A stretch of DNA of 62,601 nt, taken from positions 11,547 through 74,147 of the forward strand of contig JARRKQ010000061.1 of NCBI GenBank assembly GCA_037387885.1, read 5' to 3'. Shown piece by piece: positions 17,627 to 21,070 of this stretch. The notes beneath the pieces were generated by a model. That model worked only from the letters and a program-made list of their open reading frames with translations, had not been told where the DNA came from and did not search any database. Position numbers and translations under genes: made by a program. The DNA comes from Alphaproteobacteria bacterium (GTDB taxonomy: Bacteria; Pseudomonadota; Alphaproteobacteria; JAPULJ01). Within the stretch, counting starts at the first letter, position 1. The number at the start of each line of letters is the position of its first letter.

Positions 17627-17811
17627 GAACTGTTTTTCGCTGGCACCGAGCCCGGACGCATTCAAAGTCCGGCTCGCCGAGGCGGATTAGCGAAAGTTTA
17701 TAGGGTGCTGGCCGTGCCCCGTCACCCCCCGGATTGACCAACGCATGGGGTCCCATCGCGTGGCAATATGTCGCAGAGTATCGGCCCGCCAAACGAGGCA
17801 CGAGAGCACGC

Positions 17812-18594
17812 ATGGTCAAGTCTCAGAAAGGCTCGCCGAACGGCGGGGCCGGGCATCGTCCGATCATCATCATTCCGGCGCGGATGGCGGCGACGCGCCT
17901 GCCCGGCAAGCCGCTCGCGGATATCGCGGGCAAGCCGATGATCGTGCATGTGCTCGAACGTGCGAGCGAGGCGGCGCTGGGTCCGGTCGTGGTCGCTTGC
18001 GGCGATGCCGAGATCGCGGCGGCGGTGAACGCGGCGGGTGGCCGCGCCGTGATGACCGATCCCGATCTTCCCTCCGGCTCCGACCGCGTCCTCGCGGCCG
18101 TTACGAGCGTCGATCCCGATGGCGCGCACAACGTCGTCATCAACCTGCAGGGCGATCTGCCCGCCATCGCGCCCGCCGCGATTGCCGCGGTGCTCGATCC
18201 GCTTGGCGACCCTGCCGTCGACATCGCGACCCTGGTCGCACCGATCGGCGATCCCGCCGAGCGCGACGATCCCAACGTGGTCAAGGCGGCGCTCGACTTC
18301 GGCGGCCCGGATCAAAGGCAAGGGCGTACGGCCCGCGCGCTTTACTACTCGCGCGCCGCCGTGCCGTCGGGCGAAGGGCCGCTCTACCATCACATCGGCA
18401 TCTATGCCTTCCGGCGGGCGGCGCTCAAGCGCTTCGTCGCCCTGCCGCCCTCGGGACTGGAGAAACGCGAGCGGCTGGAACAGCTCCGCGCGCTCGAAGC
18501 CGGCATGCGCATCGACGCGGCGCTGATCGACGACGTGCCCCTGGGCGTCGACACCGAAGCCGACCTCGCCAAGGCGCGCTCGCTCCTCGCTTGA
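17812..18594 (+). CDS. kdsB: 3-deoxy-manno-octulosonate cytidylyltransferase
   Basis: [54 protein letters not shown]. Confidence 0.95.
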
Positions 18595-18621
18595 TTGCAA
18601 ATATTATTGGAAAATTTGGTT

Positions 18622-18642
18622 TTTATAGGCTAAGCCTATAAA
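18622..18642. promoter_or_regulatory. Perfect palindromic operator candidate TTTATAGGC-TAA-GCCTATAAA
   Basis: 9-bp perfect arms, 3-bp spacer, in an AT-rich island ending 21 bp before the XRE-PheA start; the right arm contains a TATAAA -10-like hexamer. Confidence 0.7.
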
Positions 18643-18663
18643 TTCTGAACGGCGGACACACGA

Positions 18664-19755
18664 ATGCTGCGTGAGATCGGCGAGCGCATCAAGCGCGCCC
18701 GCAAGGGCGCGTCCCTGTCGCAGGCGGCGCTGGCCGAGGCGGTCGGCGTCGCCCAGGCGACCGTCAGCGCCTGGGAAAGCGGCAGCCACGGGCCCAGCCT
18801 CGAGCATTTCGAGACGATCGCCCAGGCCTGCGGCCGCAGCCCGGGCTGGCTCGCCTTCGGCGACATCGATGCCGCAACGACGCGGCGAGAGGAGAGATCG
18901 GCCATGAAACGCGACGCACGCACCATCGCCTATCAAGGCGTGCCCGGGGCTTACTCGCACCTTGCCTGCCGCATTGCCTTTCCCGATCTGGAGCCGGTGG
19001 CGTGCCGGACCTTCGAGGACGCCTTCGCCGCAGTCGAGGAAGGACGCGCCGATCTCGGCATGATCCCGATCGAGAACTCGCTCGGCGGCCGGGTCGCCGA
19101 CATCCACCATCTGCTGCCCGATTCCTCGCTCTATATCGTCGACGAGCATTTCCAGCCGGTGCAACACCACCTGCTCGCCCTGCCGGGCGCCGGGCTCGAT
19201 ACCCTGAAGACCGTGTACAGCCATGAGCAGGCGCTGGCGCAGTGCCGCGGCCTGATCCGCGAATTGAAGCTCGATGCGGTGATCCGCGCCGACACGGCGG
19301 GCGCCGCCGCCGAGGTTGCCGAGCAGGACGACCCGAGCGTTGCCGCCATCGCCTCGGAGCTGGCCGGCGAGATCTACGGCCTGACCTCGCTGCGCACCCG
19401 CATCGAAGACCGGCTAGGCAACACCACGCGGATGGTCGTCATGTCGCGCACCCGCGAGGAGCCCGACCCCAAGGAGGGCGATGCGATCACCAGCCTCGTC
19501 TTCCAGGTGAGGAGCGTGCCGGCGGCGCTCTACAAGGCGCTCGGCGGCTTCGCCACCAACGGCGTCAACATCACCCGCCTGGAAAGCTATATCAGCGAGG
19601 CGATGTCCGGCATCGCGCAGTTCTACATCGACATCGAAGGCCACCCCTCCGACAAGTCGGTCGACCACGCCTTCAACGAGCTGCACTTTTATTCCACCAA
19701 GATGAAGATCCTCGGCGTCTACAAGGCGCACCCGTTCCGCCGCGAAGGCCAGTAA
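18664..19755 (+). CDS. pheA: XRE/Cro HTH domain fused to prephenate dehydratase (PDT + ACT)
   Basis: aa 1-67 IGERIKRARKGASLSQAALAEAVGVAQATVSAWESG...PGWLAFG (HTH_3-like). From aa 81: IAYQGVPGAYS, PIENSLGG, SHEQALAQC, and ACT ALYKALGGFATNGVN. Single frame, no stop. Confidence 0.88.
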   Translation: MLREIGERIKRARKGASLSQAALAEAVGVAQATVSAWESGSHGPSLEHFETIAQACGRSPGWLAFGDIDAATTRREERSAMKRDARTIAYQGVPGAYSHLACRIAFPDLEPVACRTFEDAFAAVEEGRADLGMIPIENSLGGRVADIHHLLPDSSLYIVDEHFQPVQHHLLALPGAGLDTLKTVYSHEQALAQCRGLIRELKLDAVIRADTAGAAAEVAEQDDPSVAAIASELAGEIYGLTSLRTRIEDRLGNTTRMVVMSRTREEPDPKEGDAITSLVFQVRSVPAALYKALGGFATNGVNITRLESYISEAMSGIAQFYIDIEGHPSDKSVDHAFNELHFYSTKMKILGVYKAHPFRREGQ

Positions 19756-19885
19756 CGCCGGCGCTTAATTCGGTGTGGACAATCATGTATCGTGGTGATC
19801 CGGTCGCAATCGATTGCAGCATCGCTTCATTCTCGCGACAGCAACCACAAAACCCGCGCAAAGCCGCGATCAGGGGGGATTACCC

Positions 19886-21070
19886 ATGTTGAAAGCATCC
19901 GCCGACACCGTTCTGCCGACCTCGATCATCGGCTCGCTGCCGCGGCCGCACTGGTTCACCGAGAATCTCGGGCGCCGGTCCTTCCTCGAAGCGATGGTCG
20001 ATTCGCGCTACCGCGAGCAATACGAGGACGTCGTCGCAACCTATCTGAAATCGCAGGAGATCGCCGGCATCGATATCTGCACCGACGGCGATGCGCATTA
20101 CGACGAGCAGGTCGCGGGCTTTTCCTGGCAGAGCTACGCGCCCAATCGCATGGCGGGCTTCTCGACCGACACGCCGCAGCCGAGCGAGTACAAGGTCGGC
20201 GCGGCCGCCTATCCGCGCGGCCACATCCTGCACGACTTCCTGGAATGCCGCGTGCTGCCGCGCGTCGTCGGGCCCATCGGTCCGGGCAACCTGCAATATG
20301 CCGCGATGTGGCGGGCGGCCCAGCGCCTGACCGAAAAGCCGATCAAGTTCGGCACCATCACGCCCGAGCTGCTCGCCGCCTCGGTCGAGGACGAGTACTA
20401 CAAGGACCCGGTCGAGCGGACGATGGCGCTCAGCGATGCGATCAACGCCGAGCTGCACGAGCTCGCCGATGCGGGCTGCCCCGTGATCCAGATGGAGGAG
20501 CCGCAGATCCACATGACCCCGGTGCGCGGCGAGCTCTTCGGCAAGCTCGGCACCAAGGAGCTGGTCGGCGTCTTCAACAACACGGTCAAAGGCCTCGCCG
20601 ACAAAACCGAGGTCTGGTGCCACACCTGCTGGGGCAACCCCTCGCAGCAGCGCATCTTCAAGGAGGTGCAGAGCTACCAGCCCACATTGGAAGCCCTGAA
20701 CGAGGTCGACGCCGATGTGCTCACCTTCGAGACCTGCAGCTCGGGCCCCGGCGATCTGAAGGCCATCGGCGAAGTCATCAAGGACAAGAAGATCGCCATC
20801 GGCGTGATCGACCACCACACGCTCCAGGTCGAGCGCCCCGATGAAGTCTCCGCCCTCATCCGCGAGGCGCTGCAATATATTCCGGCCGAGCGGCTCATCA
20901 TCTCATCCGACTGCGGCATGGGCCGCGAGGGCATGAGCCGGCGCCACGCCAACTACAAGATGGTGGCGATGGTCCAAGGCACGAACGAGGTGCGCGCCGA
21001 GCTCGGCCTGCCGCTCGCCACTTGCCGCGCCGAGGACCAGAGCTACTCGCTCGCCGCCAAGATGAGCTGA
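19886..21070 (+). CDS. Cobalamin-independent methionine synthase II family protein (MetE C-terminal-like)
   Basis: TSIIGSLPRP, GIDICTDGD, WCHTCWGN, IGVIDHH, IISSDCGM. Confidence 0.85.
   Translation: MLKASADTVLPTSIIGSLPRPHWFTENLGRRSFLEAMVDSRYREQYEDVVATYLKSQEIAGIDICTDGDAHYDEQVAGFSWQSYAPNRMAGFSTDTPQPSEYKVGAAAYPRGHILHDFLECRVLPRVVGPIGPGNLQYAAMWRAAQRLTEKPIKFGTITPELLAASVEDEYYKDPVERTMALSDAINAELHELADAGCPVIQMEEPQIHMTPVRGELFGKLGTKELVGVFNNTVKGLADKTEVWCHTCWGNPSQQRIFKEVQSYQPTLEALNEVDADVLTFETCSSGPGDLKAIGEVIKDKKIAIGVIDHHTLQVERPDEVSALIREALQYIPAERLIISSDCGMGREGMSRRHANYKMVAMVQGTNEVRAELGLPLATCRAEDQSYSLAAKMS

Follow-up and report, generated by a model that had tools for sequence, protein, structure and literature searches.

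A helix-turn-helix domain fused to prephenate dehydratase in Alphaproteobacteria: a predicted enzyme-autoregulator

Can a single polypeptide serve both as the prephenate dehydratase (PDT) of a cell and as the repressor of its own gene? The question is raised by a gene at positions 18664..19755 (+ strand) of a 62,601-nucleotide (nt) stretch of alphaproteobacterial DNA (the window, to which all coordinates refer), in which a Cro/C1-type (XRE) helix-turn-helix (HTH) domain continues in frame, through a linker, into the catalytic domain of a PDT and an ACT domain. Comparison with other genomes confirms that no deletion artefact created this fusion, which is real and conserved, and the DNA in front of the gene holds a perfect palindrome that recurs at related fusion loci and changes along with the recognition helix of the HTH. 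We hypothesize that a working PDT with a fused HTH represses its own gene via this palindrome, with phenylalanine (Phe) most likely modulating the repression through the ACT domain, and we hold this reading to be a likely one. Below, G000 denotes the window's genome, and numbers beginning with G, L, P and f are labels for genomes, loci, proteins and families.

The fusion open reading frame (ORF) encodes 363 amino acids (aa) plus a stop codon, starts with ATG and has no internal stops. The HTH domain occupies aa 1-67 (18664..18864; Pfam HTH_3, PF01381, matching aa 9-63 with 53.6 bits against a cut-off of 23), and is followed by a flexible linker (aa 68-87, 18865..18924) whose length varies among relatives, by the PDT catalytic domain (aa 88-263, 18925..19452; PF00800, 184.8 bits against a cut-off of 25.2, E 1.8e-54) and by the ACT regulatory domain (aa 272-355, 19477..19728). 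The ACT match is sub-threshold in Pfam (aa 277-334, 16.7 bits against 27); the domain was assigned from its predicted fold and from coverage by NF008866, the NCBIfam equivalog model of prephenate dehydratase, which spans aa 84-361 with 418.7 bits against a cut-off of 359. In an AlphaFold2 model based on an alignment of 64 fusion sequences (mean predicted local distance difference test score, pLDDT, of 89), the PDT and ACT parts are confident. The N-terminal domain forms five helices (2-15, 20-27, 31-39, 46-56 and 60-65; block-mean pLDDT 85-97 over aa 1-60), aa 61-80 in the linker region are of low confidence (block means 67 and 50), and the ACT domain has the order beta-alpha-beta-beta-alpha-beta (strands 274-282, 303-309, 318-325 and 346-354; helices 285-298 and 331-343) with block means of about 75-95. 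The original prediction, made from the letters of the window, had described a complete HTH, a linker of about 13 aa and a full PDT with ACT; Pfam, NCBIfam and the model bear out the domains, whereas the linker to the PDT core measures about 20 aa (67-86), and 13 aa only if its end is placed at an internal methionine, Met81.

The window's genome is a MAG (metagenome-assembled genome) of 4.28 Mb in 317 contigs, 72% complete, and it had been feared that a deletion might have created the fusion. The same in-frame junction, without stops, is present in both other genomes of the genus (90-95% identity), and public data hold 96 distinct fusion proteins, counting database matches and the loci that we fetched, which disposes of that fear. 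In a search of a 5.8-billion-protein collection, 67 of the best 120 matches, which were the ones examined, are full-length HTH_3+PDT proteins (55-99% identity); megabase contigs carry some of them, and a Curvivirga sp. record supplies one. When 401 genomes were sampled evenly across the class, full-length fusion matches fell in families f1, f72, f95, f127 and f173; within a single order almost every member of f127, f209 and f210 is fused, and three other families lack the fusion. The architecture is spread over several families, and clustering at 50% identity yields at least five clusters that carry it. Some of these clusters are only 42-48% identical to the window protein and come from low-GC lineages, and they retain the helix S-[QH]-x-T-[VI]-x-x-W-E. 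A scan with the pattern QPTVNRWE, taken from a narrower HTH alignment, returned five named loci only, all in Rhodospirillales or Alphaproteobacteria MAGs.

Is the enzyme part a working enzyme? The fusion is the sole PF00800 match in G000, G002, G097 (100% complete) and G282 (a single contig, 99% complete), and all four genomes encode a chorismate mutase elsewhere; the sole-PDT status is provisional in G000 taken alone and holds in its more complete relatives. The structures closest to the PDT part are those of stand-alone PDTs, namely 6vh5 (E 5e-88) and GqqA (7alz/7am0, E 4e-81). GqqA forms a stable homodimer with an interface of 2230 Å² and complements an E. coli pheA mutant (PMC8192741). Since the fusion is the only PDT-family gene in genomes with a chorismate mutase, and since its relative GqqA complements a pheA mutant, we infer that the fusion is the organism's working PDT and converts prephenate to phenylpyruvate. 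T255 and R256 are invariant among the 64 fusions. They belong to the motif T255-R256-M257 (19426-19434, within NTTRMVV, aa 253-259), in which the methionine had been pointed out as a departure from the usual TRF. The motif is as described, and TRM appears to be an ordinary, tolerated minority variant, because it is present in fused and unfused PDTs alike (9/68 fused and 6/53 unfused relatives, 15/121 overall); its occurrence in unfused relatives rules it out as a fusion-specific change. In the ACT domain the residues L-E-S-Y-I are invariant among fusions, and the motif reads ESYI, not the classical ESRP, in all 121 relatives, fused or unfused. Two genomes near G000 differ in their PDT content: in G003 (same family, other genus, 93% complete) a search with the protein as query gave no PDT-family match, and the gene may be absent from the assembly; G001 (same genus, 7% contamination) has a second, weak PDT-like match (G001:C88:204328-204828, 63 bits, in a 286-aa open frame), which is absent from G000 and G002.

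The evidence for regulation begins in the DNA before the gene. Between kdsB and the fusion lies an AT-rich gap of 69 nt (18595..18663, + strand), the presumed promoter region; the 80 nt upstream of the fusion start have a GC content of 38% against 65% genome-wide. The gap contains the strandless palindrome TTTATAGGCTAAGCCTATAAA (18622..18642), with arms TTTATAGGCT-a-AGCCTATAAA and the core TATAGG-N5-CCTATA at 18624-18640, which we regard as a putative operator. Among dinucleotide shuffles of the 80 nt preceding the gene, just 0.1% give an inverted repeat as long as this one. Since a generic inverted-repeat test gave a mixed result across loci, the case for an operator was built on conservation of the motif TATA[CG]G-N5-C[CG]TATA with at most one mismatch. 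Eleven distinct fusion loci carry this motif 30-42 nt before the start codon, as the TATAGG type in L001, L002, L003, L081, L080 and L079 and as the TATACG type in L013, L014, L016, L017 and L021, while the remainder of the gap has diverged among them. It is found at none of 39 non-fusion pheA loci (141 kb).

The palindrome also changes with the protein. The recognition helix QATVS[AS] pairs with the TATAGG palindrome and QPTV[NT]R with the TATACG palindrome; HST[VL]NR pairs with repeated TTGCAC/GTGCAA words (for example, TTGTGCAA-aaa-TTGCACAA), QSTVNR...GGRHDP with CGAATAnTATTCG, and QSTVNR...SGRHDP with TTATGC/GCATAA. A conserved predicted operator that co-varies with the recognition helix supports autorepression, and because the palindrome behaves in this way the protein is very probably a bifunctional enzyme-autoregulator, both activities being predicted; the operator that had been proposed at the gene's own promoter is upheld to this extent. 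Control of other aromatic genes, which had also been suggested, found no such backing. The 21-mer is unique in the 4.28-Mb assembly of G000 even when three mismatches are allowed; the single further one-mismatch match to the core, and the matches to the narrower core TATAGGC-N3-GCCTATA with at most two mismatches, all lie inside GC-rich coding sequence. Across eleven genomes the perfect palindrome occurs once per genome and only before the fusion gene, with no extra perfect copies in the ten genomes besides G000, and one-mismatch matches are rarer than those of a reversed control pattern. As no second intergenic site was found, there is no sign of a wider aromatic regulon; this absence is provisional for G000, which is a 72%-complete MAG, and holds in more complete relatives.

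Other upstream elements were seen at some fusion loci. At L078 (a contig from a Joint Genome Institute, JGI, metagenome; fusion 76% identical), the element TTTATCCTAT-aatc-ATAGGATAAA lies 20-45 nt upstream of the start; it has 10-nt arms and the ATAGG/CCTAT words of the window, here everted, and the helix is nearly the same (QATVSSWE). Four loci of f209 (L056, L058, L062 and L063), which are not preceded by kdsB, have a conserved GTTATCCACAGGC element about 85-100 nt upstream of the fusion start (TTATCCACA is the consensus of the DnaA box), and immediately ahead of the start codon an AGCCTATAWT that is likewise conserved; these elements stand in place of the palindrome.

If the palindrome is an operator, the HTH should still be fit to bind it. 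We compared ratios of nonsynonymous to synonymous substitution (dN/dS) by domain within the window's clade: those of the HTH are mostly 0.17-0.34, similar to the PDT domain; the linker is less constrained, at 0.35-0.39 between the closest relatives and at roughly 1 or above for pairs that are farther apart, and several of its estimates are saturated. Linker length also differs among relatives (14 to 59 aa). Of solved HTH domains, the nearest are those of the P22 C2 repressor (N-terminal domain, E 1.5e-8), then the 434 repressor (E about 1e-3) and 434 Cro. Pairwise alignment with the 434 repressor places R13 and Q20 at R10 and Q17, which are phosphate contacts in the 434 complex, and Q31, A32 and A36 at Q28, Q29 and Q33, its base contacts. 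R13 and Q20, together with W37, E38 and P44, are invariant in the 64 fusions. Because selection on it resembles that on the PDT domain and residues aligned to DNA contacts are invariant, the HTH domain looks DNA-competent and functional, with binding predicted.

A further feature of the gene lies in the linker, where GAGGAG (18889-18894) precedes, by 9 nt, the ATG of Met81 (18904; the whole element 18889..18906, + strand). This is a candidate start of an HTH-less isoform, which would be a PDT of canonical length (283 aa); the Shine-Dalgarno motif of the first ATG (18664) is weak and the internal GAGGAG is strong. Members of the window's clade retain the GGAG in their DNA despite variation in the residues that it encodes (REERSAM, TTEISAM, NQGATAM). 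In a survey of 40 distinct fusion loci, an internal methionine 4-18 residues before the PDT core is present in 20 and absent from the other 20; a GGAG, GAGG or AGGA core lies 5-16 nt before it in 15 of the 20, against 8.7% of in-frame positions (binomial p about 1e-12, uncorrected for relatedness). A second, HTH-less isoform is probably made in lineages with the internal start, including that of the window, since the linker is otherwise weakly constrained and a mere relic should have decayed. In the 20 loci without the internal methionine, the full-length protein must be catalytically sufficient. Public annotation obscures this arrangement: the fusion genes are labelled only as prephenate dehydratase, and in the two cases checked a short HTH-less product is given (MDJ0684070.1, 278 aa, and MDJ0951353.1, 283 aa, from the clusters of P0046 and P0009). 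The contigs of these clusters carry a fusion ORF of 382 or 370 aa, and NCBI lists the short PDT only. With the HTH left unannotated, surveys based on annotation under-count the fusion.

These observations suggest the following mechanism. An ancient in-frame fusion would have given a PDT a DNA-binding domain of the phage-repressor type (Cro/C1, XRE). The PDT-ACT body may dimerise and present two HTH domains on flexible linkers, which would bind the half-sites of TATAGG-N5-CCTATA, whose hexamers are 11 base pairs apart. The operator, some 30 nt ahead of the start codon, would overlap the promoter of the gene itself, so that the protein represses its own synthesis; the right half-site, CCTATAAA, looks like a -10 box, and bound protein would therefore block the promoter. 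A weak candidate promoter, TTGGTT-17 nt-TAAATT, matching at 8 of 12 positions, spans the palindrome. The outcome would be negative autoregulation of the sole PDT gene. By analogy with the known behaviour of ACT domains in PDTs, Phe bound to the ACT domain would most likely alter DNA affinity, which would place feedback inhibition and transcriptional feedback in one polypeptide. In the window's lineage the internal Shine-Dalgarno motif and Met81 would probably also yield a plain PDT without the HTH. We entertain tentatively, as a rather speculative extension, that the two proteins from one gene mix into dimers or tetramers in which the number of HTH domains and a Phe-dependent oligomeric state set the occupancy of the operator. 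If so, a single locus would provide enzyme, Phe sensor and tunable autorepressor, and would be a natural counterpart of the 'missing link' between enzyme and transcription factor that was made artificially for BzdR, a regulator discussed below.

Several points weigh against autorepression as set out here. A strict sigma-70 scan found no promoter in the gap between kdsB and the fusion; the longest inverted repeat is significant against shuffles in only about one third of the fusion loci, and a clear palindrome was not found in the f209 clade, L018 or L023. The loci that served to define the operator motif are also those in which it was counted, and they are phylogenetically related, which makes the p-values optimistic. 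The ACT domain lacks the classical ESRP, and its binding of Phe is presumed. HppE epoxidase is among the weak structure matches of the HTH, and some enzymes carry HTH_3 domains that have no known DNA-binding role. HppE, an enzyme with an XRE-like N-terminal domain, and the fusion clades that lack a clear palindrome speak for a structural, oligomerisation or protein-interaction role of the HTH; the palindrome would then be a promoter element or the site of another factor. We find this improbable, as the class of palindrome shifts together with the recognition-helix sequence, residues aligned to DNA-contact positions of the 434 repressor are invariant, and non-fusion pheA loci have no palindrome. 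That the XRE gene and pheA were joined by assembly or deletion in this MAG would fit its fragmentation, yet we can practically dismiss it, as two other genomes of the genus share the in-frame junction and it recurs in dozens of assemblies made independently, some of them single contigs.

A different doubt concerns which product matters: the short PDT from Met81 might be the only functional one, and the HTH frame the decaying remains of an adjacent XRE gene whose stop codon was lost. The strong internal GAGGAG-9 nt-ATG beside a weak Shine-Dalgarno motif at the first ATG fits this idea, as do the 278- and 283-aa products that are all NCBI annotates on two fusion-bearing contigs. A relic, however, should not be under purifying selection as this HTH is, none of the 96 distinct fusions has a stop, and about half of the lineages, having no internal methionine, must use the full-length protein; we therefore regard the idea as very improbable. 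Autoregulation might also proceed without metabolite sensing, the HTH-PDT protein setting a constant enzyme level and Phe acting only on catalysis through the ACT domain. Small XRE and Cro-type repressors commonly autoregulate without ligands, there is one operator site per genome, and a linker of 14-59 aa that is poorly conserved argues against precise allosteric transmission. Set against this, the HTH has been kept fused to an ACT-bearing enzyme since the families diverged and no split arrangement of HTH and PDT was seen, which suggests that the physical link matters, and ACT-driven changes of oligomeric state are known in PDTs; autoregulation without sensing is credible and, in our judgement, unlikely. 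Repression by the fusion protein with Phe as modulator is the reading that we prefer and carry into the comparisons below.

How does the fusion compare with known systems? The BzdR repressor of Azoarcus sp. CIB, to which it had been likened, shares the layout of an N-terminal Cro/C1 HTH, a linker and a C-terminal module from an aromatic-pathway enzyme, and acts at palindromic operators (PMC3602430). The likeness is one of architecture and does not extend to membership: the model of the BzdR subfamily (NF006015, PRK08154) matches with 18.8 bits against a cut-off of 204, and over the HTH only, the C-terminal domain being PDT-ACT, so the fusion is not a member of that subfamily. The kinase-like domain of BzdR has lost catalysis and only binds benzoyl-CoA, whereas the C-terminal part of the fusion is its genome's only PDT and passes the equivalog model. 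The authors of the BzdR study proposed that enzymes recruit DNA-binding domains and later lose catalysis, and built the bifunctional intermediate artificially (PMC3602430). The HTH-PDT family looks like a natural intermediate between enzyme and regulator, its enzyme part appearing active.

The acquisition of a DNA-binding domain by an enzyme is a textbook route to metabolite-sensing regulators, of which natural, still-catalytic intermediates are few. The present one combines a cell's only PDT, an ACT domain and a predicted operator with a single target. Trigger enzymes such as PutA, BirA, NadR and the archaeal RbkR catalyse a pathway step and are thought to repress the genes of the pathway with one polypeptide, and the same two activities are predicted for the fusion; they use ribbon-helix-helix or winged-helix folds and serve other pathways, and to our knowledge none of them involves a PDT or aromatic amino-acid synthesis. 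Like the P22 C2 and 434 cI repressors, the fusion has an N-terminal HTH, a flexible linker and a C-terminal body for oligomerisation, and, as in their operators, two hexamer half-sites lie roughly one helical turn apart; unlike in these repressors, the body is a metabolic enzyme and not an S24 peptidase-like domain, and there is no phage context. Stand-alone alphaproteobacterial PDTs (PRK11899 type; 6vh5, GqqA) align end to end with aa 82-361 of the fusion and share the position downstream of kdsB and the ESYI-type ACT domain, but have neither the N-terminal 80 aa of HTH and linker nor the AT-rich palindrome region. The classical N-terminal fusion to PDT-ACT is the P-protein of E. coli (chorismate mutase, PDT and ACT), whose extra domain is catalytic and not DNA-binding, and TyrR, the classical regulator that combines an ACT domain with a response to aromatic amino acids, has no enzyme domain and has a C-terminal Fis-type HTH. 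A search of the literature for PDTs joined to an HTH domain turned up no account of such a protein, in agreement with the impression, recorded when the gene was first noticed, that the fusion had not been characterised. If our reading is true, Phe biosynthesis joins the short list of pathways controlled by trigger enzymes, and aromatic amino-acid regulation in several families of Alphaproteobacteria has a mode that had gone unreported. A defined binding site and natural variants of the recognition helix make the idea of an enzyme-regulator directly testable.

Where did the fusion come from? Mapped on a phylogeny of the PDT-ACT part, the fused state requires 6 changes (mean in shuffles, 39.5), and fused lineages are interleaved with unfused clades. 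Because the state is strongly clustered and yet interleaved, we favour a single old gain followed by several losses or transfers, the alternative being a few independent gains. No separate XRE gene was found between kdsB and pheA in the genomes examined. Nor did a split arrangement of XRE, stop and pheA hold up: at the level of the class, upstream matches that run through stops are kdsB in frame or GC-rich open frames and not HTH. The unfused sister clade P0034 has no HTH and a different neighbourhood; at L050/L051 of this clade an unfused 298-aa PDT lies beside a divergent gene for GTP cyclohydrolase II, not kdsB, which suggests that the PDT-ACT part was transferred without the HTH into another lineage. 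Clusters related to P0034 are labelled Arenicellales or Gammaproteobacteria.

The neighbourhood of the fusion is conserved on its upstream side. In the window, kdsB (CMP-KDO synthetase; 17734..18594, + strand; Pfam CTP_transf_3, E 8e-46) lies directly upstream, and most of the loci examined, fused or not, have it at this position and on the same strand. The order kdsB to pheA, with pheA encoding a stand-alone PDT, had been taken as the alphaproteobacterial norm, rightly for most non-fusion loci examined, in which both genes share a strand and the gap is usually within about 100 nt; where the PDT is fused, its core is separated from kdsB by the AT-rich gap, the HTH and the linker. A terminator scan of the + strand over 18400-19900 found none. 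Downstream of the fusion, after 58 nt that hold no predicted terminator, follows a MetE-like gene (19814-21070; Pfam Meth_synt_2, 418 aa). This neighbour is not conserved, and relatives have instead a gene of the FGE-sulfatase family, an aconitase gene or a gene on the opposite strand.

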